In this document: positions 5,538 through 51,913 of the stretch, piece after piece
Numbering within the stretch: position 1 is the stretch's first letter
Layout: each line of letters starts with the position of its first letter
DNA from: a virus
Lineage: Duplodnaviria; Heunggongvirae; Uroviricota; Caudoviricetes
Length of the DNA: 64,000 nucleotides
IMG/VR virus record: IMGVR_UViG_3300027708_003081
Strand: one strand, 5' to 3'
The notes under the pieces: model-generated
Databases searched by the model: none
What the model saw: the letters and a program-made list of their open reading frames with translations, nothing else
Told to the model about the DNA's origin: nothing
Position numbers and translations under genes: made by a program

Positions 5538-5762
5538 ATGGAAAATAAAGAAATGGTTAATCACCCGAATCATTATGGGGGAGCCGACAACGCATATGAA
5601 GCGATTAAGATTATTGAAGCCCTTGAATTGGACTTCCACACAGGGAACGCACTCAAGTATCTTGTAAGGGCGGGAAAAAAAGACCCCGAAAAAGAACTTG
5701 AAGATTTAAAGAAAGCCGCTTGGTATCTCTACCGAAAAATAAAAAATATAGAAACTACGTAA
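5538..5762 (+). CDS. DUF3310 (SaV-like) phage protein
   Basis: VNHPNHYG...EAIKII...FHTGNALKYLVRAGKK...EDLKKAAWYL signature. Confidence 0.9.
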   Translation: MENKEMVNHPNHYGGADNAYEAIKIIEALELDFHTGNALKYLVRAGKKDPEKELEDLKKAAWYLYRKIKNIETT

Positions 5763-6616
5763 TGATAGAGACAAACAAAATAATAAATGGTAACTGTATT
5801 GATGTGATGAAAAATATGCCCGAAGGATGTATTGATTTAGTTGTCACGTCGCCTCCCTATGGTGTTGGAATCAAATATGACGTTCACGATGATGATATGG
5901 AATTCACCGAGTATCAGGAGTTCAGTAAAGACTGGCTCACACAAGCATACAGGATTCTTAAAGATGATGGTAGAATTGCTGTTAACATTCCGTATGAAAT
6001 TAACAGACAGGCGAAGGGTGGAAGAATCTTTATGGTTGCTGAAGTGTGGAAGATAATGCAAGAAATTGGTTTTGGTTTTTTTGGTATAATTGATTTAGAA
6101 GAAGATAGTCCCCACAGAAGTAAAACCACGGCTTGGGGTTCTTGGATGAGTCCGTCCAGCCCTTATGTGTATAACCCAAAAGAATGTGTTATTCTTGCTT
6201 ACAAGAAACAACATATTAAGAAAGTTAAGGGCGTCCCGCAGTGGGTCGGTGTTCCTACGGATATTGAAATGGAAGATGGAACAACCAAGAAAAAGATTGT
6301 TTATCAAGATGATGATAAAAAAGATTTTATGGAACTTGTATTCGGGCAGTGGAAGTATCTTAACGACAGTCGTCCTATGACGAAGGCAACATTTTCTATG
6401 GATATTCCAACCAAAGCAATTAAGATTCTTACTTATAAAGATGATATTGTCCTTGACCCGTTCTGTGGTAGTGGTACAAGTTGTGTTGCGGCAGAAATAT
6501 TAGATAGACGATGGTTGGGGATAGAATTAAGTGAAAACTATGCAAAAGTTGCAAGAGACAGGGTTCAGTTATTCATAGAGAAGAAAAAACAATTAGAAAT
6601 AGAAGGGTTAGTTTAA
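5762..6616 (+). CDS. Orphan N4-cytosine/N6-adenine DNA methyltransferase (beta class)
   Basis: Motif IV VTSPPY precedes motif I VLDPFCGSGT; the start is refined to the ATG overlapping the DUF3310 stop; no cognate restriction enzyme nearby. Confidence 0.9.
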   Translation: MIETNKIINGNCIDVMKNMPEGCIDLVVTSPPYGVGIKYDVHDDDMEFTEYQEFSKDWLTQAYRILKDDGRIAVNIPYEINRQAKGGRIFMVAEVWKIMQEIGFGFFGIIDLEEDSPHRSKTTAWGSWMSPSSPYVYNPKECVILAYKKQHIKKVKGVPQWVGVPTDIEMEDGTTKKKIVYQDDDKKDFMELVFGQWKYLNDSRPMTKATFSMDIPTKAIKILTYKDDIVLDPFCGSGTSCVAAEILDRRWLGIELSENYAKVARDRVQLFIEKKKQLEIEGLV

Positions 6617-6625
6617 CCCTTTTTT
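6603..6625 (+). terminator. Rho-independent terminator
   Basis: AAGGGTTA-GTT-TAACCCTT followed by a T-run. Confidence 0.65.
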
Positions 6626-6657
6626 CTTTTCTTTAATATTTATAAGAAAATGTTTTA

Positions 6658-7629
6658 ATGGCAACAATTCTAATAACAGAAAAACAATATTTGAATTTAG
6701 TAGATTTTGAAAAAGATATTATAAAGGAGGACTTTATTGAAAACGCACTTATGGTTGCGGGATTTGTTCCTGTGATTGGTGAAGTGGCAGATATTATATT
6801 GATATTGAGATATTTGTGGAAAGGAGAATATTTGTACGCAGGTTTAATGTTAATTGCTTTGATTCCTACTGTTGGTGATATCATCGCAAAACCAATAATA
6901 AGATTATTAAAAGGTGCTGGAATTGCAGGGAGAGGGGCGATGACTTCAACTAAAGCTTTGGCAAAATATTGTGCAGAACATCCTGATTTTGCTGCGAGAT
7001 ATGCAAAAATAGGAGGACATTTGACAGACCCACTAATTACTAAAACAATTAATGGTATTGAGAGAATACCAGGGATAGGTGAGAAAGCCGCTAATGGATT
7101 GAGAAAATCTATATCGGGACATCTTTCAGTTGTAAACAAATTAAAACCTATACAAGCGGCTAAGGCGGTTGGTAGAGAAGTTGCTGCTGGTGGTAAACTT
7201 AGTACAGGTCTTAAAAATTTCTTTAGGGATGAAAAGTTAGCTCAATATATTGCTAAAAAAGGTCAAGCACCAAGTAATTGGTTATCTAATTGGTGGAATG
7301 TTGTGATGCCGGCAAGAAGAGGACGTAGAAATATGGTAAAAAACTTTGTATTATCAAATAAATTATTAGATAAATTTGGTTTACCAAGTTTTGAAGCATT
7401 TGAAGATAAATTCAAAGAAGATGAAAATTTTAGAAAAGAATTGGCCAACGACCCGCAATTCTCACAAGTTGTTAATCAAACAACATCTCAAGATGATTTA
7501 AATCAAATTGAAGGAACCGGAACTGAATCAGACCAAACTGTAAGTGCTGGAACAACTCAAACATCAACACCGTCAATAGACCCATTCCAAGGATTGGTTA
7601 AAGGTTTATTATCTGGACAATTAGCTTAA
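6658..7629 (+). CDS. ILITExQ-leader protein with a pre-toxin TG (PT-TG)-like hydrophobic segment
   Basis: LMVAGFVPVIGEVADI...LIALIPTVGDIIAK resembles PT-TG helical-hairpin motifs; the C-terminus is unassigned. Confidence 0.55.
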   Translation: MATILITEKQYLNLVDFEKDIIKEDFIENALMVAGFVPVIGEVADIILILRYLWKGEYLYAGLMLIALIPTVGDIIAKPIIRLLKGAGIAGRGAMTSTKALAKYCAEHPDFAARYAKIGGHLTDPLITKTINGIERIPGIGEKAANGLRKSISGHLSVVNKLKPIQAAKAVGREVAAGGKLSTGLKNFFRDEKLAQYIAKKGQAPSNWLSNWWNVVMPARRGRRNMVKNFVLSNKLLDKFGLPSFEAFEDKFKEDENFRKELANDPQFSQVVNQTTSQDDLNQIEGTGTESDQTVSAGTTQTSTPSIDPFQGLVKGLLSGQLA

Positions 7630-7654
7630 TTGATATATTTATAATAAAATAATT

Positions 7655-8026
7655 ATGAAAGAAGAATTAACATTAAAACTCATTCAGATACAAACTCAAT
7701 TTAAGTTTTTGCATTGGCAAACATTTGGAGATGCTAAACATAAAGCATATGGTGAAATATATGATTTGTTAGGGGATAATATTGATACATTTGTTGAAGT
7801 TATGATGGGAAAACAAGGAAGAGTTGAGTTTGACCCAGAGTTCTCAATTATGTTTCAAGATATCAAAAATTTAAGTGTTCAAAACTTTTTGGATGGTATA
7901 ACAGAATTTTTGGTAGGAATGACGGAGCAGTTAGATAAAAAATATGATACTGATTTGTTAAACATTAGAGATGAAATGTTGGGAGACATTAATCAATTAA
8001 AATACAGATTAACTTTAAAATACTAA
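7655..8026 (+). CDS. Ferritin/Dps-like four-helix protein (DUF5856-like)
   Basis: LHWQT...HKAYGEIYD.L...D.FVE...IRDEM pattern. Confidence 0.75.
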   Translation: MKEELTLKLIQIQTQFKFLHWQTFGDAKHKAYGEIYDLLGDNIDTFVEVMMGKQGRVEFDPEFSIMFQDIKNLSVQNFLDGITEFLVGMTEQLDKKYDTDLLNIRDEMLGDINQLKYRLTLKY

Positions 8027-8031
8027 TATAA

Positions 8032-8379
8032 TTAAAAAATATATTCAACAGAATCTCCAGGTTTAATACCCAACCTTTCACAAGTACCACCACCCAATTC
8101 AAGAACAATATTTCCTTTACCAACATAAGAGTCACAGTCCTCCGTTTCACACGGGGGACATTTGTGATGAATTTTAGTTATCTTATTATTTTTAATCATT
8201 ATAATATCTAAATCTATCACACAATTCTTCATCCAAAAAGATTGAGACTGACCACCCATTAAAAATAGAAGTCCGTCAAAACCATTATCAAATTTCTTTC
8301 CCATCATACCTTTAGCTTGAGAAAATTTATCTGTAAGAGTTTTGACTTTGAAGATATTTTTGTTAACTTTAACTTTCAT
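8032..8379 (-). CDS. DUF192 (UPF0127) family protein
   Basis: KGMMG...GLLF...SFWMKNC.IDLDIIMI...VLELGGG. Confidence 0.85.
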   Translation of the reverse strand: MKVKVNKNIFKVKTLTDKFSQAKGMMGKKFDNGFDGLLFLMGGQSQSFWMKNCVIDLDIIMIKNNKITKIHHKCPPCETEDCDSYVGKGNIVLELGGGTCERLGIKPGDSVEYIF

Positions 8380-8392
8380 AATATATAAATAT

Positions 8393-8815
8393 ATGGATAC
8401 TAAAACATACGTAGGTGTCGTAGTTAAATGTAAAGATAAAGTTCTTCTTTGTAAAAGAAATGCTCAAGGTTCATTTCCTGGAATGTGGTCCATTCCCGCA
8501 GGGAAGGTTGAAGATGGTGAAGAAACGATGGATGCGGCAAAAAGAGAATTCTTTGAAGAAACGGCAATTGATATTGATAACAAGGAGTTAACATTTGTCG
8601 GTTTAATTCCAAGACATACAAGAGATGGAAAGAAGATTAAAGGAATGATGTATGTGTATCAATATGATGTTGAAGATGAAATTTACCCTGATTTGGATAA
8701 CGCAATTGATGGTTCTGAACACACGGAATGTGGATATTTTACTACAAATCAAGTGTCGCAAGAGAACTCGGGAGAGTATTTACATAAACTAATTCAAATT
8801 ATTTTAAAAAAATAG
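8393..8815 (+). CDS. NUDIX hydrolase
   Basis: Nudix box GKVEDGEETMDAAKREFFEET; start refined to the ATG at 8393. Confidence 0.9.
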   Translation: MDTKTYVGVVVKCKDKVLLCKRNAQGSFPGMWSIPAGKVEDGEETMDAAKREFFEETAIDIDNKELTFVGLIPRHTRDGKKIKGMMYVYQYDVEDEIYPDLDNAIDGSEHTECGYFTTNQVSQENSGEYLHKLIQIILKK

Positions 8816-8868: not shown

Positions 8869-9378
8869 ATGAAAAAAGTATTAGTTATTTTAGGAGTTAT
8901 TGCTTCTATCAACACTTTCGGTCAGACACCGGCAGTAAAAACAACAACAACATCTAAGTTCAATTACAGGGTGGGTATTGCAACAGGACTTCCAGTAGAT
9001 GTTAATGTTGAGGAAAGTAGATTAAAGACATCATCTACAATGGGTGAGGTGTCTTACAAAAACACAAAGTTATCTAAAAAAATCACATTAACCGCAAATG
9101 CAGGTTACTTAAGATTTACGTCAACAGACGGTACGGGATATGCAAAAATTCCTGTTATGGTTGGTGTTAGATATCCAATTAATGAGACTTTTTACTTCGG
9201 AGCAAGTGCAGGTCCATCTTTTTACAATAAAAAAGAAAATGGTACTACTGAATTAGTGTATTCACCATATGTCGGACTTCAAGTTAAAAAAATCTCTTGT
9301 GATTTCAGATATTTGAATTTCACACGTAAAGACTACGTTCAAAAGACAATTGGTTTGGTTTTTGGATACACCCTGTAA
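8869..9378 (+). CDS. Secreted outer-membrane beta-barrel protein (Bacteroidota-type)
   Basis: Signal peptide, alternating amphipathic strands, C-terminal IGLVFGYTL. Confidence 0.75.
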   Translation: MKKVLVILGVIASINTFGQTPAVKTTTTSKFNYRVGIATGLPVDVNVEESRLKTSSTMGEVSYKNTKLSKKITLTANAGYLRFTSTDGTGYAKIPVMVGVRYPINETFYFGASAGPSFYNKKENGTTELVYSPYVGLQVKKISCDFRYLNFTRKDYVQKTIGLVFGYTL

Positions 9379-9402
9379 TAAAGAAAAAAACGAAATCTAA
9401 AG

Positions 9403-9432
9403 GCGACAAACATTAAGTTTGTCGTTTTTTTT
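9403..9432 (+). terminator. Rho-independent terminator
   Basis: GCGACAAAC-ATTAA-GTTTGTCGT followed by a T-run. Confidence 0.7.
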
Positions 9433-9462
9433 GCTTATATGAGATATTTATCAGTAAAAGTT

Positions 9463-9951
9463 ATGAAAAAAACGTTATTATTATTTTTACTATTGACCGC
9501 GACAATAGTTTCATTCGCACAATTTAAATTACCATCAAACAGAAGTAGCGCGGGAGTTGAGATATTTGTACCAACAGGTAATTTATCTAAAACACATTTT
9601 CTTGGTTTGAGCGCAAATCTTCAAATGGAGATGAGAAATCCAAAAAATCCTGCGGGAATCTTGTTATTTTCAGGATATAATTATTGTCTCCCAAAATCAG
9701 GTTCAAAATCTTTTATTATGTTTCCTGCACTTGTTGGTGTTAAATATCATTTGACTAATTTAATTTCAACAGGAAGTATGATGGGAGTTAGTTTTGTTAA
9801 TAGAGGTGGAGGAATTAGGTATACCTACTCTATGTCTATGGGATTTGAAAATGAAGATTGGTCAACAGACATAAAATTCGGAGGTTCTACATTTCCCGGG
9901 CATGAAAATGACTATTCGGGATTTAGTGTAAGATTTGCTTACCGACTATAA
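9463..9951 (+). CDS. Second outer-membrane beta-barrel protein
   Basis: Signal peptide MKKTLLLFLLL...SFAQ; IPVMVG/FPALVG strand shared with 8869; C-terminal FSVRFAYRL. Confidence 0.7.
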   Translation: MKKTLLLFLLLTATIVSFAQFKLPSNRSSAGVEIFVPTGNLSKTHFLGLSANLQMEMRNPKNPAGILLFSGYNYCLPKSGSKSFIMFPALVGVKYHLTNLISTGSMMGVSFVNRGGGIRYTYSMSMGFENEDWSTDIKFGGSTFPGHENDYSGFSVRFAYRL

Positions 9952-10015
9952 AAAGAAATTAAACTCCGCTAACCGGGGTTTTTTATTTATAATAAATTAA
10001 AACAAAAAAACCAAA

Positions 10016-12007
10016 ATGAAAAAAATCACATTATTACTTTCGTTATTGTTTATGACGGTGTTATTCACGTCATTAAAAATAACAAGTAATCCAAATTGCC
10101 CAACAGGGTATTCAACGGCTCCATCACTAAATGGTACAACTGTAAGGAATTGTACAAGTTGTCACGGAGATTATTCATTAAACACGGCTGGTGGAGGAAT
10201 TACGGTAACAGGATTACCAACAACATTTACTCCAGGTACTGCATATCCTTTTAGTGTAAAGGTAACTCATTCAGCTGCGAACAGAACAGTATGGGGTGTT
10301 GCAATTAAAGCGGTGGATACATTAACTCATGCAGTTATTGGAACTTGGACTACAACAAATCCAAACACATCAATTAAAGGAACTCCAACAATTGCAAATG
10401 GTAATTATGAGTTGAGTCATGCAAATGCCGCAACATCAACCGCTACTAACACTTACACTTATTCTAATTTAACTTGGACAGCACCGGCGTTACCAACTGC
10501 GGTACAATCAAGAGTTAAGTTTTATGTTTCTGCGGTTGCTGGTAACAGTAGTGGTGATGAAGCTGGTGATTATGTTTACTCAACATCATTAACTTCAAAT
10601 CAGTATGTTGCTCCAACTCCTTGTACATTTACTTACGGACAATGGACAACTTGTTCTAATGGTACACAAACAAGAAGTTACACAACAAGTCCGGCAGGAT
10701 GTACAGGAACTCCACCCGCAGATTCAATTCAAAGAACTTGTTCAGTTCCTTGTACTTTCACATATGGTGCTTGGACAACTTGTTCTAATGGAACACAAAC
10801 AAGAAGTTATACAACATCACCAGCAGGTTGTACAGGTACACCTCCAACAGATAGTATAACAAGAACTTGTACGGTAGTTCCGCCCACATCATTACCAACA
10901 CCTGTAACAATCACAGGAACAATAAATCCTGGCGTTTGTGATACTATAAGAACATTTACTGTTCAAAACCAAAGTAATGTATTTTATGCTTGGGTAATTA
11001 GTGGTGTTGGAAATTACATTACTAATGGACAGGGAACAAATGTATTGACTGCGGTTGTTAAAGCGGGAGGAAGTGTTACAGTATCATTAAGTAATACTGC
11101 AGGTTCAATCCCGTCAACAAGTTTGGCGTTCACTAAAGCAGTTCCACCAACTCCAACGGCTATGAATGGTAGTTTGGCACCTTGCCCTAACAGTACATTT
11201 ACTTATTCATTAACAAATCCTTTACCAAGTGCAACACAAGTTGCTCCAAATGTATTTAGATGGACAACACCAGCATTTACTACAATAACTTCAGCAAATG
11301 CTGATAGTTCACAAATTACATTAAATTTTGGTGGTAGTTATGTTGGTGGTACATTATCGGCTAAAGGTGTTACAAACTGTGGTGCTGTAGGTAGTGCTAA
11401 ATCAATAGTTTTAGCGCCAACAAAGGCGGTGGATGTAGTTTCAAGTACAGGATTTTGGAATGGTTGTATTGGTAATTCAGTAAATTATTTTGTAGTTTCA
11501 CCAGTTACTTCAATCTCACCTGTTTCAGGATATAGATGGACAACACCAGCATTTACAAGTATAACTTCAGCAAACGCTGATAGTTCACAAATCACATTAC
11601 AATTTAACACAGGTTATAAGGGTGGTTCACTTAAAGTCCAAAGCTCAACAAGTTGTGGTTCTCTTGGAACTGCGGTTTCAAAAACTTTAACACATATTGG
11701 ATGCGCAGCGGGACAGAGAAATGGTATTGAAGAAGAAACTCTTGTAACTGATTTAGTAAGTTTATTTCCTAATCCAAATAATGGTGAATTTACAATTAAT
11801 ATTCAAACAGGAGATAAAATAACTCAAAAGGCTTTAATTCAAATAATTAATTTACAAGGAAATCTTTTAGACCAATATACTGTTGGTGTTAATGGTGGTG
11901 TTATTAGTAAAAAAATAACAAACACTTCATTAAAAACTGGTATGTATTTTATTACTTATATTATTGGTGATAAGAAGAAAACAATTAAGATGTATGTAAC
12001 TCAATAA
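10016..12007 (+). CDS. T9SS cargo protein: signal peptide, CxxCH/Reeler-like (choice-of-anchor V-like) domain, two TSP1-like repeats, PKD-like domains and a T9SS C-terminal sorting domain
   Basis: RNCTSCHG; duplicated CTFTYG(Q/A)WTTCSNGTQTR; duplicated RWTTPAFT.ITSANADSSQITL; C-terminal SLFPNPNNGEFTI...LKTGMYFI...KMYV. Confidence 0.85.
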   Translation: MKKITLLLSLLFMTVLFTSLKITSNPNCPTGYSTAPSLNGTTVRNCTSCHGDYSLNTAGGGITVTGLPTTFTPGTAYPFSVKVTHSAANRTVWGVAIKAVDTLTHAVIGTWTTTNPNTSIKGTPTIANGNYELSHANAATSTATNTYTYSNLTWTAPALPTAVQSRVKFYVSAVAGNSSGDEAGDYVYSTSLTSNQYVAPTPCTFTYGQWTTCSNGTQTRSYTTSPAGCTGTPPADSIQRTCSVPCTFTYGAWTTCSNGTQTRSYTTSPAGCTGTPPTDSITRTCTVVPPTSLPTPVTITGTINPGVCDTIRTFTVQNQSNVFYAWVISGVGNYITNGQGTNVLTAVVKAGGSVTVSLSNTAGSIPSTSLAFTKAVPPTPTAMNGSLAPCPNSTFTYSLTNPLPSATQVAPNVFRWTTPAFTTITSANADSSQITLNFGGSYVGGTLSAKGVTNCGAVGSAKSIVLAPTKAVDVVSSTGFWNGCIGNSVNYFVVSPVTSISPVSGYRWTTPAFTSITSANADSSQITLQFNTGYKGGSLKVQSSTSCGSLGTAVSKTLTHIGCAAGQRNGIEEETLVTDLVSLFPNPNNGEFTINIQTGDKITQKALIQIINLQGNLLDQYTVGVNGGVISKKITNTSLKTGMYFITYIIGDKKKTIKMYVTQ

Positions 12008-12024
12008 TAACTTCTTATATAGTA

Positions 12025-12058
12025 AAAAACCGGTATATGAAAATATATCGGTTTTTTT
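12025..12058 (+). terminator. Rho-independent terminator
   Basis: AACCGGTATAT-GAAA-ATATATCGGTT followed by a T-run. Confidence 0.7.
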
Positions 12059-12177
12059 TATTGACTTTTTTTAAAAAAATATGTATGTTTGTAGTCCTTT
12101 GGGAAATATGAAGATATTTATATTTCCTGGTCCTCACGGACAAACACCCCAAAACCCCAAAATAAGTTTCAAAAAGA

Positions 12178-12209
12178 TTTGATTAATTGAAAAGTTCTTC
12201 TTAACTTTG
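12178..12209 (+). promoter_or_regulatory. Bacteroidota sigma-A promoter, copy 1 of a roughly 55-nt repeat
   Basis: TTTG (12178-12181), 20 nt, TAACTTTG (12202-12209). Confidence 0.8.
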
Positions 12210-12288
12210 TGAAACAAATGAGATGAGAGTCTCACAAACCCCACAAGTAGTTTGAGAAAATTATAATAAATGTGGGGTTTATTTTGAA

Positions 12289-12299
12289 AGTTCTTTAAA
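12289..12299 (+). promoter_or_regulatory. boxA-like antitermination motif upstream of the tRNA
   Basis: AGTTCTTTAAA directly after a perfect 10-bp leader stem (12236-12245 with 12271-12280). Confidence 0.5.
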
Positions 12300-12309
12300 T
12301 AAATTATAC

Positions 12310-12381
12310 AGTGGCGTAGAGCAGTGGTAGCTCACTAGGCTCATAACCTAGGGGTCATTGGTTCGAATCCAATCGCCGCAA
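12310..12381 (+). tRNA. trnM: tRNA-Met (CAT), initiator-like, CCA not encoded
   Basis: Cloverleaf AGTGGCG / GAGC-AGTGGTA-GCTC / CTAGG-CTCATAA-CCTAG / ATTGG-TTCGAAT-CCAAT / CGCCGCA-A; the 1:72 pair is mismatched as in initiator tRNAs. Confidence 0.9.
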
Positions 12382-12403
12382 CAAAAAAAAGTTTTAAAAA
12401 AGA

Positions 12404-12435
12404 TTTGATAGAATGAAAACTTCTTCTTAACTTTG
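12404..12435 (+). promoter_or_regulatory. Bacteroidota sigma-A promoter, copy 2
   Basis: TTTG (12404-12407), 20 nt, TAACTTTG (12428-12435). Confidence 0.8.
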
Positions 12436-12440
12436 TGAAA

Positions 12441-12530
12441 CATTTCGGGGTAATTCTTCAGATTCCCTAAAAAGAATTGATTGGAAGAGCGGTATGGTGA
12501 TGTCGCTACTGGTGAATCAAACCGAAAAAA
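12441..12530 (+). ncRNA. Candidate structured small RNA of about 90 nt
   Basis: Lies between promoter copies 2 and 3; closing stem TTTCGG/CCGAAA with an internal AATTCTT/AAGAATT hairpin; no credible ORF. Confidence 0.35.
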
Positions 12531-12544
12531 AAGTTTCAAAAAGA

Positions 12545-12576
12545 TTTGATTAATTAAAAAGTTCTTCTTAACTTTG
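12545..12576 (+). promoter_or_regulatory. Bacteroidota sigma-A promoter, copy 3, upstream of the large RNA
   Basis: TTTG (12545-12548), 20 nt, TAACTTTG (12569-12576). Confidence 0.8.
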
Positions 12577-12720
12577 TGAAACAAATGAAGAAGATGGGGT
12601 TGTAAAGATTCCATTATTCTTTCCCTACCGAAAGGAGTTCAAAAATTAGAACAAAAATCGGTGATTACAAGTGGGGGGAATGAGTGGTTGTAAAGATTCC
12701 AGCATCTTCTTTAATTAGAT

Positions 12721-12731
12721 AGTTCTTTGAA
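12721..12731 (+). promoter_or_regulatory. boxA-like antitermination motif
   Basis: AGTTCTTTGAA directly after a leader domain closed by GAAGATG/CATCTTC. Confidence 0.55.
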
Positions 12732-12734
12732 TAA

Positions 12735-13605
12735 AAATATTATCCATTCAGGATGTTGATGATGAGACCTTCGGGTTGATTCTGAGATAACTGATAAAAG
12801 GTAATTGGCCGTATATGGTCATTAAATAAACCACGAAAGTGGCTTAAAGTGATTCACCTTGGTTTAGGTGGGTTGCGGCATCGGTAACGGTGCTTGAGTA
12901 TACAAGCGAGATATCGTTTAACCTTAGTACCCGAGGGTAACACTGTAGGGGAGTTGGTTAGATGGATTGGCGATGTGGGTCGTCAGTTTGAGGTGGGAAC
13001 ACCAATAAGAATAACTCGTAGAGTTAATGCAAAACATAGGGTTATCCGACTCTACTATTGCGTAACTCAGTATTAAAGTTGATTTAAAACCGAAAGGTAA
13101 GTTGGAGTACAGGTGGTGCTGTTACCAACCCTGACACGTCTCTACCAAGAGCGTCTCACTGAAGTTGACTTGAAATATGGAGGTAGGGATACTTCATAAG
13201 GGAGTTTAGTATTTGGTTGTTCAAAAGATAACTGAGCTAGCGACGGACCGCTTCCTTTTCCATCCACAAACCACTAAAACTTTGAATAAATTAATTCATA
13301 ATTAAATCAATCAAGGAAAAGTGTCCGTCAGTCGGAAATGAAAGATGACTACATAGTCGTGAGTTGTTCACGGCCACAAAGGTTCCCAAGACTAATGTGA
13401 TTTTTATGAAAGTCTTCTAGTCCCGCAAGGACTAATCAGGGTGGCAACCTTGAGGAGTGATGAGTAGTAAGAGAGTATTTTTCGACTTAAAGTGTGATTG
13501 ACTTTATCAATCGTCATTAAGATTTACTTTTCAAAAGAAAGTGGAAACGAAGGGAAACAATAATCCTTCTAAAGAATCTTACAAGATGGTGTATTCTCAA
13601 CCTTT
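12735..13605 (+). ncRNA. Large ornate non-coding RNA (GOLLD/ROOL-class candidate; boundaries approximate)
   Basis: About 870 nt, more G/C-rich than the flanks, with no credible ORF. Hairpins include ACC-TTCG-GGT, CCAC-GAAA-GTGG (12831-12842), GCATCG-GTAA-CGGTGC (12878-12893), ACC-GAAA-GGT (13089-13098), TAGTCC-CGCAA-GGACTA (13418-13434) and GATTGA-CTTTA-TCAATC (13496-13512). Long-range stem GACGGAC/GTCCGTC. Adjacent to a tRNA. Confidence 0.75.
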
Positions 13606-13614
13606 TTTTTATTT

Positions 13615-13641
13615 ACCTGTCACTTTTGACGGGTTTTTTTT
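13615..13641 (+). terminator. Rho-independent terminator closing the ncRNA unit
   Basis: ACCTGTCA-CTTT-TGACGGGT followed by a T-run. Confidence 0.75.
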
Positions 13642-13674
13642 ATGCCCTCACACTATTTATTATAAAATTATATT

Positions 13675-14481
13675 ATGTCTAAACAATTTATAAATGAAGT
13701 AAGTAGAATGAAAGACCTTTTTGGATATAAAAAGGGACAAGTAATATCTGAACAAGTAACTTCAAAACAAAAAGAAGCCATGAATGCAGGATGGGGTCCC
13801 GTTACTGATGAAATTGCAAAATCACTAAAAGTTGGTTCTGACGGTAAAATATTACCAAAGGAAGTAACTCAACCAAATTCATCTACAGACCCATTTGCGG
13901 CGTATCTATGTGTTAAAAAGTTAGGACCTATTAAAACAGAAAATAGAGATGGTAAAAGTATGAAATTTGTCCAATCGGTAGAGGACAATACCGATGTAAA
14001 TATTGGAGGATTTAATTATACTTTGTCAAGTATAAAATTCTTTGAGAATGGAGATGCGGTGATTGGAGGAAAGATAGTAAAAAAATTCAGTTGTGGTACT
14101 GGTCGTGAGATAATTATTGATGATGTTAAAATAACTCCAAAACTAATCACAAAACCAGTAGTTCAAATTCCAAAAGAATTAAAAGATTCTGAAGGTGTTA
14201 AAAAATTCCAAGATTGGATGGATACTAATCATTCTAATTGGGTTAAGGGTGGTAAAAATTTAAATAAAGGCGGTGGGTATGGTAAATTTGGTCCAAGTAC
14301 AAGTGCTGCTTGGAGTAAATATAAAAATGAATATTTAGGTGGTTCTAAAACAACAGATACAGGTTTTTCACCAATTAATAAAATGATGGCAGGAACTAAA
14401 GATTTTCCTGGTGCATTTAATACAGGTGGTATAGGTGTTTCTGATGAAGAAGATAAAGAATTATACACAACAAAAAATTAA
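13675..14481 (+). CDS. MSKQFINEVSRMK-leader protein with a peptidoglycan-binding-like C-terminal motif
   Basis: VKKFQDWM...GYGKFGPSTSAAW resembles PG_binding_1; the first ~27 aa are shared with the next gene. Confidence 0.65.
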   Translation: MSKQFINEVSRMKDLFGYKKGQVISEQVTSKQKEAMNAGWGPVTDEIAKSLKVGSDGKILPKEVTQPNSSTDPFAAYLCVKKLGPIKTENRDGKSMKFVQSVEDNTDVNIGGFNYTLSSIKFFENGDAVIGGKIVKKFSCGTGREIIIDDVKITPKLITKPVVQIPKELKDSEGVKKFQDWMDTNHSNWVKGGKNLNKGGGYGKFGPSTSAAWSKYKNEYLGGSKTTDTGFSPINKMMAGTKDFPGAFNTGGIGVSDEEDKELYTTKN

Positions 14482-14486
14482 TAATT

Positions 14487-15728
14487 ATGTCAAAACAATT
14501 TATAAATGAAGTAAGTAGAATGAAAAACCTCTTTGATTACAAAAGAGGTGTTGTCATTTCTGAACAAAAATTTTTGAACGAAGCTGAAATTCCATTTCCT
14601 GCGGGAGTATCCAAAGAAGCATATGATGAAATAATGGGTATTTCTGCAGAAAACAAAAAAACAGGGCGGGGTTCATACTTGTTTCCCACACAAGCTGCTG
14701 AAATAGACAAAAAATACGGTGCGGGAATTTTCAAAAAATTTACTGATGCTGGAGGGTACGATGTTTTAGCGGGAAAATCAACTTTTACAACAACGGAACC
14801 TGGAGCTAAAACTAACTCTACATACTCCACCACATGGAATCCCGCGGCGCAATACGGCATTAAAGGTACTAAAGTTGAAGAATATCCTGAATGTGTTAGA
14901 GCATTTGGAAATCCCATTTCAAATACGGCAAAAACAGTATATGGTATTGCTGGAACTGGTGAATATAAAGGATATTTTTTTTATTCTAATATAGGTGATA
15001 ACGTGGCTCCGAAAGGAAGAGTTCTAAAATCAGATGGTACTATGGGTGATTATACTTGTTTCAACGGGAAAATTGTTATAGATGGTAATTATGGTGCCGC
15101 TCCGGCAGGGGCTGCGGCGGCAAAACAACCGACACAGTGGACTAAAGAACCTGCAACTTTGGATGACGATAAGAACACACTAAAAAAACAAATGACAGGT
15201 GAAAAAGTAAAACAATTACAAACAGGATTAGATATTAAAAATAAAGGTGGTAAATCTTTAGCAACAGGAAAATTTTGGACACTAACTGATACAAAACTAA
15301 AACAATTATATCCTACTGAATATACAACACAAAAAGGTGTTACAAAAACTTTATTTGATAAGATTGTTAATCCAACATTAAAAGCATCAACAGCTGCGGC
15401 ACCTACAACAATACCTGTGACAGGAACAACACCTGCAGCAGGGGTAACACCGGCAACGGAAATAACCCCTACAATCATATCGGCACCACAAATTGCTGCT
15501 GCTGCAAAAACAACACCTGAGGAGTTTTATAATACTTTAAGGAAAAATGGATATATTCAGGGAGCGCCTGAGGAAGGTGATGGTAGGATTAAGTATAAAG
15601 CACCAAAAGGAGAAACTCCAAATCTTATGAAAGACCAACAAGATTTACTTACACAACAGATGAATACTTTTGGTTATGATTTTTACCGAAAAGGAAATGA
15701 TAATAGATTAGTTTATACTAAAAGATAA
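14487..15728 (+). CDS. Paralogous MSKQFINEVSRMK-leader protein with a PG-binding-like motif
   Basis: MTGEKVKQLQTGL...TGKFWTLTDTKLKQ; Ala/Thr/Pro linker. Confidence 0.65.
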   Translation: MSKQFINEVSRMKNLFDYKRGVVISEQKFLNEAEIPFPAGVSKEAYDEIMGISAENKKTGRGSYLFPTQAAEIDKKYGAGIFKKFTDAGGYDVLAGKSTFTTTEPGAKTNSTYSTTWNPAAQYGIKGTKVEEYPECVRAFGNPISNTAKTVYGIAGTGEYKGYFFYSNIGDNVAPKGRVLKSDGTMGDYTCFNGKIVIDGNYGAAPAGAAAAKQPTQWTKEPATLDDDKNTLKKQMTGEKVKQLQTGLDIKNKGGKSLATGKFWTLTDTKLKQLYPTEYTTQKGVTKTLFDKIVNPTLKASTAAAPTTIPVTGTTPAAGVTPATEITPTIISAPQIAAAAKTTPEEFYNTLRKNGYIQGAPEEGDGRIKYKAPKGETPNLMKDQQDLLTQQMNTFGYDFYRKGNDNRLVYTKR

Positions 15729-15733
15729 TATTT

Positions 15734-15759
15734 AAACCCACTTTTATAGTGGGTTTTTT
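15734..15759. terminator. Bidirectional terminator between convergent genes
   Basis: AAACCCACT/AGTGGGTTT stem. Confidence 0.65.
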
Positions 15760-16015
15760 AATCCCACGACTTTTTTAATGCGACAGGAGTATAAGTACCT
15801 TTCTCTTTCATCTCTTCAAAGTACTCTGATATCTTACGAGCAGTTTCTCTACCCTCTTCAAATATTAGGTTAATATATACGAATCTTGGAGTAATTTCGG
15901 ATAATTGAGATATGTCTAATTCTTTTAATAAGTGATTAATTAACATATTGGCATAATCTTTGGCATAATGTAAGTCTTCAAAGATTTGTCTTAAAATTTC
16001 AATATCTCTTTCCAT
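15758..16015 (-). CDS. Hypothetical protein
   Basis: ORF track; start refined to MERDIE. Confidence 0.6.
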   Translation of the reverse strand: MERDIEILRQIFEDLHYAKDYANMLINHLLKELDISQLSEITPRFVYINLIFEEGRETARKISEYFEEMKEKGTYTPVALKKSWD

Positions 16016-16140
16016 AGTAGTTTTTTTATCGGTTAACAAGTATACTAACAATCCCCCAGTTTTTCAAGTGGACAGTAATAAATAAATATTTTGTAATTCA
16101 AAAAAGTATTCCTACCTTTGTTTAAACAAAATTAAACTAT

Positions 16141-16674
16141 ATGTTTGACAAATTAATAGAATTTTTAATACAGTTTTTGGATGATGTTCTTCCTTTTAAA
16201 GTGATTAATGAGTGGGAGAAAGGGGTTTATTTGAGATTTGGTAAATATGTTAAAAACGTTGAACCGGGTATTGTGTTTAAGATACCATTTGCCGATAAGG
16301 TATGGCATTCACCTGTAATAACTCAAACAATTCACCTACAACCCCAAACTTTAACAACTCTTGATGAGAAGGATGTCGTATTAAAAGCAATTGTAAGATA
16401 TCACGTACAAGATGTTAAAAAATATCTATTAAATGTTATGCACGCATCTGACGTACTTGTTGATACCACTCAGGGAGTCATTAGAGACACCGTAGAGGGT
16501 TATAATTGGGAGGACTTGTACAATATAAGTCAGACATTAGAAGAACAAGTTCAGGGTATTGTTGAGGATTGGGGTATTAGAATAGAAAGAATTACATTAA
16601 CTGACTTGGGTATTGTTAAGACATATAGAATTATGTCAGATAATACAAAACCAACACAAATAATTCCAGAATAA
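16141..16674 (+). CDS. SPFH/Band 7 (stomatin/HflC-like) protein
   Basis: EKGVYLRFGK...PGIVFKIPF...QTLTTLD...ITLTDL; TAnnTTTG promoter at 16113-16120. Confidence 0.9.
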   Translation: MFDKLIEFLIQFLDDVLPFKVINEWEKGVYLRFGKYVKNVEPGIVFKIPFADKVWHSPVITQTIHLQPQTLTTLDEKDVVLKAIVRYHVQDVKKYLLNVMHASDVLVDTTQGVIRDTVEGYNWEDLYNISQTLEEQVQGIVEDWGIRIERITLTDLGIVKTYRIMSDNTKPTQIIPE

Positions 16675-16721
16675 TTTTGGTAATTCAAAAACTTTAATTA
16701 CCTTTGTTAAAACATTAAGAT

Positions 16722-17000
16722 ATGGAAATGAATCACAACATTAGAATTCAACACGAAAAGTTTGGTATTTTACTTGACGAGACATTTGTTAATCCGGTTC
16801 AGTTTAAACTATTTTTGAGATTAACTCAAAGCTGTGTTGAGATGAAACAGGATTTAACATTCTTTAACGGTACGGATTTCTTTATTCATATTCCTTATGA
16901 TAAATTGAAGGAGTGTATCATCAATACAAAAGTGGATACTTATACTTTAACAGACCATATTAGAAACAAATCAAAATTGGAGGCATTAGAAACATTATGA
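16722..17000 (+). CDS. Hypothetical protein
   Basis: ORF track; promoter TACCTTTG at 16699-16706. Confidence 0.7.
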   Translation: MEMNHNIRIQHEKFGILLDETFVNPVQFKLFLRLTQSCVEMKQDLTFFNGTDFFIHIPYDKLKECIINTKVDTYTLTDHIRNKSKLEALETL

Positions 17001-50779: not shown

Positions 50780-51913
50780 ATGGAAAATGTTAACAGTTGC
50801 GCTTATGTCGCAAAGATAGATGAAATAAAAGAAATCGTTGGTGCAGATAAAATAGAACAAGCCCGCATCGGTGGATGGAATTGCATCATCCAAAAGGGAG
50901 AATATAATGTTGGTGATTTGGTTGTTGTTGCAACCACCGATGCGGTTATACCCGAGAGTTTATCTGACGCAATGAACGTAACCAACTATCTCCGTAAGGG
51001 ACAGAGGGTTAGGACTGTAAAGTTAAGAGGTGTGTATAGTGAGTGTTTGATTATTCCATTCAGTTATGTTCCTACTCGTACTAAAGGTGTATATTACGAA
51101 GGGGACGATGTGATGGAAATTTTAAAGATTTTCAAGTATGAACCACCAGTTAAACAAATAACTCTTGGTTCAGGTAGAACAATAAGATATTCGGAAAACC
51201 CGAACTTCTTGGTATATTATAAGTTCCCAAATCAAAAGAACGTTCCTGAAATGTTTAATGAGGAAGATGACGTTCAAATAACAAGGAAGATACACGGAAC
51301 CAATGCGAGATACGGAATCGTTAAGAAGACCAAATTATCTTTATGGGATAAAGTTAAGAAGTTTTTTAGAGTTGCGGATAAATGGATAGATTATGAATTT
51401 GTGGTAGGTTCCCATAATGTTGAGAAAGGTTCTGACTCACAAGGATTTTATGAAACAAATGTTTGGTATGAAATCGCGGACAAATATAACATAAAAGAAA
51501 AGTTATGGAATTTTGTTAAACTTAATTCATTAGAAGACACTGGTTCGGGTATAACATTATATGGTGAAATCTATGGTGCGGGAATACAGAAAGGATATGA
51601 TTATGGTTTGGAAGAGATAAAGTTTGTGGGGTTTGATATAATAATAGATGGTAAATATTTGGATACACTCAATACTAAATTGATATTAACCGACTTTTTA
51701 AGATTACCACACGTAGAAGAATTATATGTCGGTAAATGGAGTAAAGAACTTCAGGATATGTTTGTGGTTAATAATTTCATACCGGGAACCAAGGTACCAC
51801 ACGAAGGTATAGTAGTTAAAAGTACAAGTGGTGAACGTTCCAAAATCTCAAAAGTGATTAACAATGATTATCTTTTGTATGGTGAGAAAAACGAAATAGG
51901 TGATTCACATTAA
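50780..51913 (+). CDS. ATP-dependent RNA ligase, DRB0094/Rnl2-like, with an N-terminal tRNA-binding OB-like domain
   Basis: Motif I KIHGTN, EIYG, FDI, EGIVVK and terminal KVIN; N-terminal I.GADKIE...V.K. Confidence 0.9.
   Translation: MENVNSCAYVAKIDEIKEIVGADKIEQARIGGWNCIIQKGEYNVGDLVVVATTDAVIPESLSDAMNVTNYLRKGQRVRTVKLRGVYSECLIIPFSYVPTRTKGVYYEGDDVMEILKIFKYEPPVKQITLGSGRTIRYSENPNFLVYYKFPNQKNVPEMFNEEDDVQITRKIHGTNARYGIVKKTKLSLWDKVKKFFRVADKWIDYEFVVGSHNVEKGSDSQGFYETNVWYEIADKYNIKEKLWNFVKLNSLEDTGSGITLYGEIYGAGIQKGYDYGLEEIKFVGFDIIIDGKYLDTLNTKLILTDFLRLPHVEELYVGKWSKELQDMFVVNNFIPGTKVPHEGIVVKSTSGERSKISKVINNDYLLYGEKNEIGDSH

Follow-up and report, generated by a model that had tools for sequence, protein, structure and literature searches.

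GOLLD RNAs, for which a cage structure was solved recently, are among the largest RNAs of unassigned function in bacteria and phages. We describe here a GOLLD locus in IMGVR_UViG_3300027708_003081, a Caudoviricetes virus record of IMG/VR; the whole stretch of DNA that was analysed, 64,000 nucleotides (nt) long, is called the window. The locus is an intergenic block, 12008-13674 (leaving aside an 88-aa minus-strand open reading frame (ORF) that overlaps a tRNA gene), bounded by a plus-strand gene ending at 12007 and a plus-strand gene starting at 13675. From 5' to 3' on the plus strand, the block holds a promoter block, a boxA-like word and a tRNA-Met gene; two further copies of the promoter block; a leader with a stem domain and a second boxA-like word; a short 5' extension; the two domains of the GOLLD RNA; and a T-run followed by an intrinsic terminator. 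No other ORF-free stretch of the window (counting ORFs of at least 80 aa) is as long as its part 12615-13674 (1060 nt), and the G+C content is 0.40 over 12806-13605 compared with 0.32 for the window, in agreement with an initial annotation of the bare letters that had singled out an ORF-free, G/C-enriched stretch and had guessed at a GOLLD- or ROOL-like RNA or a new class. Tetraloop-type hairpins, also claimed there, are present with 4-bp stems and TTCG (12766), GAAA (12831) and GTAA (12880) loops, to which GGAA (12992) and GGGA (13182) can be added.

We conclude, with a probability of roughly 0.9, that 12806-13605 (+) is a full-length, env-38-type GOLLD RNA gene in an uncultured freshwater phage with a Bacteroidota host. 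A cmscan search against all 4227 Rfam families placed GOLLD (RF02032) at 13197-13603 on the plus strand, at 324.9 bits (the gathering score is 150 bits) and an E-value of 2.6e-92; the match is untruncated and spans model positions 1-416 of 416, and its alignment holds just four non-canonical pairs and includes a long-range (pseudoknot) pairing of AGUCGGAAA with UUUUCGACU. At the gathering score, GOLLD and tRNA were the sole Rfam matches in the whole window. ROOL gave no match at E <= 1 in 11900-13800, nor at the gathering score across the window, and the models of group I and II introns, RNase P, tmRNA and other large RNAs gave none at E <= 1 in 11900-13800, where the remaining matches at that level were three weak sRNA or leader hits at 11981-12155. 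The Rfam scan that the initial annotation had proposed therefore gave a strong GOLLD match, and the intron or other known element that it had named as an alternative identity was not found among these models at E <= 1. A match of this strength confirms the RNA and removes its novelty: this copy is a new member of a family that was already known.

The Rfam GOLLD model represents the conserved 3' domain only, the 5' region of the family being less conserved (Kretsch et al. 2025, PMC12286853). The 5' part was compared with env-38, a GOLLD RNA from the marine metagenome scaffold JCVI_SCAF_1096627009515 that was resolved by cryo-EM as a homo-14-mer (PDB 9MEE; Kretsch et al. 2025, PMC12286853). The env-38 construct starts with ATGGCCGCTATGGTCGTCAAATAAATACGAAAGTAGGATAAAGTGG (Supplementary Table 4, PMC12286853) and the window from 12805 reads TTGGCCGTATATGGTCATTAAATAAACCACGAAAGTGGCTTAAAGTGA, the two sharing the 5' domain start GGCCG..TATGGTC..AAATAAA..CGAAAG..ATAAAGTG. 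Further blocks occur in the same order as in env-38, namely CTGCGG-hairpin-GAGCTTGAGTA..CAAG, GAGGGTAACAC, TTGAG..GGAA..AATAAGAATAAC and a GAAA-capped hairpin; this collinearity was read by eye over about 330 nt. Position 1 of env-38 corresponds approximately to 12806, so the RNA core is 12806-13605, about 800 nt from helix P1 to the last hairpin against 833 nt in env-38. Within it, the 5' domain (12806-13196; the cap domain in env-38) is supported by env-38 collinearity, nhmmer matches across it in more than 90 loci and dense compensatory changes, and the conserved 3' domain (13197-13603; the ring domain) by its Rfam match.

Membership of the RF02032 family and the two-domain layout are thus common to the window copy and env-38, as are an A/U-rich internal linker, a GC-type dinucleotide in the kissing loop, and a position directly downstream of a tRNA-Met gene (for env-38, see PMC12286853). 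They differ in origin, env-38 coming from a marine scaffold with no host assigned and the window copy from a freshwater phage with a Bacteroidota host. They also differ in a 5' extension of about 70 nt (12735-12805) that lies before P1 in the window, upstream of the first base of the construct. This extension carries a small ATCC/GGAT hairpin and a UUCG-capped hairpin, is kept in about half of the relatives described below, and folds no better than shuffled sequences. The start of env-38 had no exact match in IMG/VR, and neither had a 42-mer taken from the window's GOLLD. A shorter relative, the GOLLD of a Streptococcus agalactiae prophage (about 700 nt), assembles as a 12-mer at full length and as a 10-mer in the case of its 3' domain (PDB 9L0R, 9LMF; PMC12990946); it shares with the window copy the conserved 3' domain and the principle of self-assembly, but is without P9, P11a-c, P21b and part of P7 and P10, the window copy being of the longer lake/marine type. 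ROOL is likewise a large phage-borne cage RNA (an 8-mer) near tRNA genes, but is unrelated in sequence and fold.

A degenerate pattern of the 3' domain identified at least 119 loci in IMG/VR. With window 12250-13660 as the query, nhmmer matched 106 of the 119 listed loci, more than 90 of them as full-length homologs above 150 bits (E < 1e-50), and 88 aligned over both domains. Covariation was assessed on 60 copies of less than 90% mutual identity, which are 53-72% identical to the window and 861-918 nt long (measured on the span matching window 12735-13615). RNAalifold predicted 190 pairs for this set, 157 of which show a both-sided compensatory change in at least one sequence, with a covariation term of -52.3 kcal/mol; covariation is found in both domains, and the helices of the RF02032 3' domain were recovered independently, with compensatory changes. 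The covariation among homologs that the initial annotation had proposed to look for is therefore present. Homology of the relatives to the window stops at 13604-13613 or at 13639-13645.

The same alignment bears on a long-range helix that had been drawn from the window alone. Its outer part, GACGGAC (13242-13248) with GTCCGTC (13323-13329), is well supported, with 99.8% of cells paired and six of the seven pairs compensatory among the 60 homologs; this 7-bp helix closes the variable linker of the RNA. The inner part, TTCCTT with AAGGAA, is rejected: just 61% of cells are paired, and both-sided changes occur in few sequences, at two of the six pairs. The partner of TTCCTT is instead 13198-13204 (99.8% paired, four of seven pairs compensatory), as in the Rfam model. 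Conservation within the RNA is lowest in the linker itself (13258-13312), which is 41-68 nt long and 74% A+T in the 60 relatives. ARAGORN found no tRNA inside it, whereas the linker of GOLLD RNAs sometimes carries one; as an A/U-rich variable segment it matches the linker of env-38, which is disordered and faces the interior of the cage (PMC12286853). The hairpin at 13420-13432 (loop C-GC-AAG) is, judging by its position, probably L21a of env-38. Its central loop dinucleotide is GC in about three quarters of the 60 relatives and CG in about one quarter, both of which are self-complementary. The L21a loop of env-38 forms a symmetric intersubunit kissing contact, bridge B8, for which a GC/CG pattern was taken as evidence (Kretsch et al. 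2025, PMC12286853), and the switch reported for that contact is present among the relatives of the window copy.

The stretch is present in 20 public runs, of which six are lake metatranscriptomes; over 9000-17000 we examined the contigs of one DNA run and of three RNA runs (X4, X6 and X8) from three studies. Exact contigs of the DNA run have an even depth of 28-39 over the region. In the RNA runs, exact-match contigs of GOLLD reach depths of 375, 130 and 171 (X4), 1421 (X6) and 516 (X8), against 2-13 overall for the flanking genes (2.2-7.8 in X4, 3.3-7.8 in X8, and 8.7 and 8.4 for exact contigs of 1825 nt and 1246 nt in X6); the flanking contigs show the phage itself to be present in these runs at low depth. 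A ratio of GOLLD to flank of 20-160 in three studies rules out carry-over of DNA, and the initial annotation's proviso that a transcript might be lacking does not apply. The GOLLD RNA is made and accumulates, and its leader does not accumulate: RNA depth jumps between the bins 12471-12737 and 12738-13004, is just 2.8 and 7.5 over 12370-12596 and 0-7.5 over the leader stem domain (12583-12716), and 12597-12751 is in parts uncovered or low in RNA contigs, which are unable to prove absence. The RNA contigs begin inside the 5' extension (12761), where one run also has an adapter junction at 12752; this junction is a weak hint of a 5' end, as junctions occur also at 12596, 13248, 10519 and 16752.

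Two other identities for the RNA can be weighed at this point. A new class of large ornate RNA, neither GOLLD nor ROOL, was the second half of the initial guess, and the 5' 390-470 nt do have no Rfam match of their own, the model covering 13197-13603 only. A bare 5' half is expected, however, of a model limited to the 3' domain; the blocks of the 5' half follow those of the env-38 5' domain in order, and in the 60 relatives the two halves co-vary and co-occur as one unit of 875-918 nt. We therefore treat a new class as excluded by the full-model GOLLD score together with the env-38 collinearity, its probability being negligible. It is also highly improbable that the RNA, instead of being a gene in its own right, serves the downstream gene (13675-14481) as a long structured 5' leader or cis-regulatory element, even though that ORF lies on the same strand and only 70 nt away: a T-run and a canonical terminator stand between the RNA and the ORF, summed RNA depth is 0-13 in bins from 13806 on, inside the ORF (with exact contigs at about 8-13), and this ORF lies beside GOLLD in one of the 119 listed loci, where the match is partial only.

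Promoters of Bacteroidota have the consensus TTG at -33 and TAnnTTTG at -7. A block of about 55 nt with TTGAT-N-TAACTTTG occurs three times in the locus: at 12179-12209, where it precedes the tRNA-Met unit as an exact TTG-N20-TAnnTTTG; at 12405-12435; and at 12546-12576. Over the window, TTG-N20-TAnnTTTG is found at nine sites against 2.8 expected, and four of these lie within 12061-12576. The third copy, of the same -33/-7 type, aligns with the conserved cTTGaca-N19-TAACTTTGTAAAAC of the relatives and is most likely the promoter from which GOLLD transcription starts, with a predicted start near 12582. At the other end, a T-run (13603-13612) is followed by a canonical hairpin with T8 (13615-13644; stem 13615-13634). 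Of the dedicated promoter and terminator of the initial annotation, the terminator is present, and the conserved promoter lies further upstream, at 12546-12576, not at about 12716-12743.

Parts of the upstream region lie outside these units. The second promoter copy is followed by a stretch of about 90 nt; 12436-12535 has no boxA, tRNA or Rfam match and has an A-run end just before the third copy, and 12442-12535 folds no better than shuffled sequences (z -0.9), its content not being kept in relatives. The closest listed relatives (L016, L026 and L061) differ in this slot, where their sequence opens with a boxA-like word (..TTGAACCTGTCCCATTAAGAGTGGGGGGTATTAGAATC..). Within 12061-12170, a further and looser site that resembles a promoter, the fourth (TTGACT..TATGTTTG), comes immediately behind the upstream gene's terminator; some 80 nt with an unassigned product (tagtcctttggg..ccccaaaacccc) separate it from the first promoter copy.

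Between promoter and RNA, the relatives have a small hairpin (TCGGAAATGTCCG) and the word GTTCTTTGAA, the hairpin being followed by GTTCTTTGA. In the window, the place that the small hairpin has in most relatives is taken by 12583-12716, a leader stem domain that appears as an insertion of about 130 nt (alignment gaps 83-98%); its fold has an energy of -38.6 kcal/mol (z -2.7), and an exact 16-nt direct repeat, GGTTGTAAAGATTCCA, stands on both sides of it at 12598-12613 and 12686-12701. Words resembling GGTTGTAAAGATTCCA were seen in the leaders of the listed loci L056, L016 and L045. The word GTTCTTTGAA follows the stem domain at 12722-12731, ahead of the untranslated RNA, and the layout of a boxA in a ribosomal RNA operon (rrn) leader is therefore present. 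Among the 74 unique listed loci that extend at least 250 nt upstream, GTTCTT[TA][AG]A occurs in all 74, at 18-222 nt (median 72) 5' of the core, compared with a background of 0.12 per kb; 62 of the 74 have the promoter pattern, which in 61 lies upstream of the word (median 28 nt). A similar word, GTTCTTTAAA (12290-12299), lies 11 nt before tRNA-Met and follows a 10-bp hairpin, in a leader (12216-12309) that folds at -22.4 kcal/mol (z -3.3), and a boxA-like word precedes 47 of the 466 tRNA genes of the 119 listed loci.

The rrn boxA consensus is UGCUCUUUAACA in E. coli and AUGAUCUUUGAAA in B. subtilis; the B. subtilis boxA, to which NusB binds, is immediately preceded by a small hairpin of the leader (PMC13753749). 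The rrn leader antiterminator (a boxB hairpin and boxA, acting with NusB-S10, NusA, NusG and SuhB) has the same order of promoter, hairpin and U-rich UCUUUGAA as the GOLLD leader, and in both the word stands ahead of a long untranslated structured RNA, here also before a neighbouring tRNA gene. It differs in that the GOLLD leader is phage-borne and precedes a non-ribosomal RNA, and in that the consensus here is 1-3 bases off the B. subtilis and E. coli words. From the likeness of the word to rrn boxA and from the hairpin-then-boxA layout, we read the GOLLD leader as a putative rRNA-type antitermination signal, a reading to which we give about an even chance. A literature search found no link of GOLLD to antitermination or to Bacteroidetes. 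A stem for leader-trailer processing, looked for by eye between 12732-12805 and 13600-13675, was not found beyond A/T-rich partial matches.

A possible course of events runs as follows. Host RNA polymerase would start at the Bacteroidota-type promoter (12546-12576) and read through the stem domain and the boxA-like word, which may recruit antitermination factors of the NusB/S10 type, as on rRNA operons; these would protect the long untranslated transcript and possibly aid its folding. Transcription would stop at 13603-13644, and the leader would then be removed or decay. By analogy with env-38 (14 copies), the RNA of about 0.8 kb would form, free of protein, a closed cage of identical subunits whose A/U-rich linkers point to the inside, and we infer that this copy forms such an RNA-only nanocage. 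The cage might then act on the translation apparatus together with the co-located phage tRNAs, holding or sequestering tRNA, ribosomes or an RNA-binding host factor; a role of this kind, in the phage's handling of translation, is offered with low confidence. More generally, we hypothesize that lake-phage GOLLD is produced in the manner of rRNA, with host promoter, hairpin and boxA loading a Nus antitermination/chaperone complex and the leader being discarded, an idea whose chances we put slightly short of even. If true, GOLLD would count as a 'stable RNA' of the phage that needs the host's rRNA transcription machinery to fold during transcription and to assemble its cage, and it would group functionally with the phage tRNAs in the takeover of translation.

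Several points count against this chain of interpretation. The boxA reading is drawn from motif similarity and position. The GAAA-capped hairpin of the window (13090-13100) is shorter than that of env-38, and the oligomer number varies among GOLLD RNAs (10-, 12- and 14-mers), both of which tell against carrying the env-38 cage over to this copy. Function has been demonstrated for no GOLLD. The RNA data consist of assembled contigs, which carry neither strand nor exact ends, and k-mers from co-occurring GOLLD variants could inflate the RNA depth. Finally, the directly flanking genes lie beside GOLLD in 0-1 of the 119 listed loci, so that there is no conserved protein partner from which a role might be read.

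Alternative explanations exist both for the word and for the RNA. The word GTTCTTTGAA might be an RNA-processing site or a phage-specific transcription signal rather than a boxA for Nus factors, as RNA depth jumps just 3' of it, as if the transcript were cleaved nearby, and as in many arrays it lies 11-30 nt ahead of the first tRNA, in a zone of RNase P and RNase E processing. We consider this unlikely, though by no means negligible: the word shares the core UCUUU[GA]A with the boxA consensus of two phyla that are far apart, it comes after a hairpin close behind a promoter, as in rrn leaders, and its variable distance to the GOLLD core (18-222 nt) would be unusual for a site that sets a mature end. 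The RNA itself, rather than forming an empty cage, might serve as a decoy or sponge: being structured and in large supply during infection, it would titrate a host factor such as a defence nuclease directed at tRNA, ribosomes, or a factor associated with them. Its very high abundance relative to phage mRNAs would suit such a role, as would the constant linkage of GOLLD to tRNA islands (466 tRNA genes in the 119 listed loci), the lack of a conserved protein partner encoded alongside in those loci, and the binding of ribosomes in pull-downs cited by Kretsch et al. 2025 (PMC12286853). Set against these are that no host partner has been identified and that conserved intersubunit contacts, including the GC/CG loop switch, suggest oligomerisation under selection; we hold a decoy to be the less probable reading, though not a negligible one. 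The decoy and the cage are compatible with each other, and it is to the proposed role in translation that the decoy is the main rival.

Seen against what is known of the family, this copy adds no categorically new content, and what it contributes is evidence of expression, a host assignment and an invariant boxA-type leader. The 'lake' form of the env-38 type is carried by Bacteroidota phages, many of them jumbo phages, and GOLLD ranks with the most abundant transcripts of phages in lake metatranscriptomes. The constant element of the GOLLD transcription unit is the rRNA-style leader of hairpin and boxA behind a host-type promoter, which bears on how a large untranslated RNA escapes termination and folds.

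The host assignment rests on the neighbourhood as well as on the promoter type. The upstream gene (10016-12007) encodes a protein of 663 aa with PKD-like domains and a C-terminal Por_Secre_tail (PF18962), the sorting domain of the type IX secretion system (T9SS), which to our knowledge is confined to Bacteroidota; this sorting domain and the promoter type support a Bacteroidota host. The presence of PF18962 is also a signal of a host-type secreted or surface protein in a phage. The Bacteroidota phage proposed in the initial annotation is accordingly borne out by the T9SS domain, the enrichment of TTG-N20-TAnnTTTG and the jumbo-phage contigs of the closest listed relatives. Many of the listed relatives come from jumbo phages, on viral contigs of IMG/VR that measure 260-345 kb. 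Against GenBank phages, blastn gave a single match at the level of GOLLD, to an uncultured phage of 635 kb (35% of the query, at 68.8% identity); its other matches were to tRNA-Met. Among 185,579 prokaryote genomes, a pattern of the 5' domain matched five times, which is close to chance expectation, and never in Bacteroidota, so this form appears to belong to lytic or uncultured phages and not to common prophages.

Among the neighbours, the ORF at 10016-12007 had no homolog in GenBank phages by tblastn, and PHROGs gave no function for the flanking genes. A set of genes 4-7 kb upstream (5720-8815), encoding a DNA methylase (N6_N4_Mtase), DUF5856, DUF192 and NUDIX, recurs in 17-23 of the 119 listed loci at 56-87% identity and within a few kb of GOLLD; this recurrence reflects relatedness of the phages (a clade) and not a dedicated protein partner. 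No conserved protein gene directly adjoins GOLLD, which fits the RNA-only assembly described for the family. The neighbour that does recur is tRNA: in the window, tRNA-Met (CAU; 12310-12382, +; ARAGORN, and 62.6 bits with the Rfam tRNA model) lies 424 nt upstream of the GOLLD core, and tRNA-Met is the commonest of the tRNA genes in the listed loci, with 62.

In bacteria, initiator tRNAs are marked by a lack of pairing between positions 1 and 72, and the first acceptor position of this tRNA-Met, inspected by eye, is apparently unpaired (A1 opposite A72). Elsewhere in the window, an RNA ligase (with PHA02142 OB-fold and RNA_ligase domains) is encoded at 50780-51913, and weak homologs of it are found in four other listed GOLLD loci.

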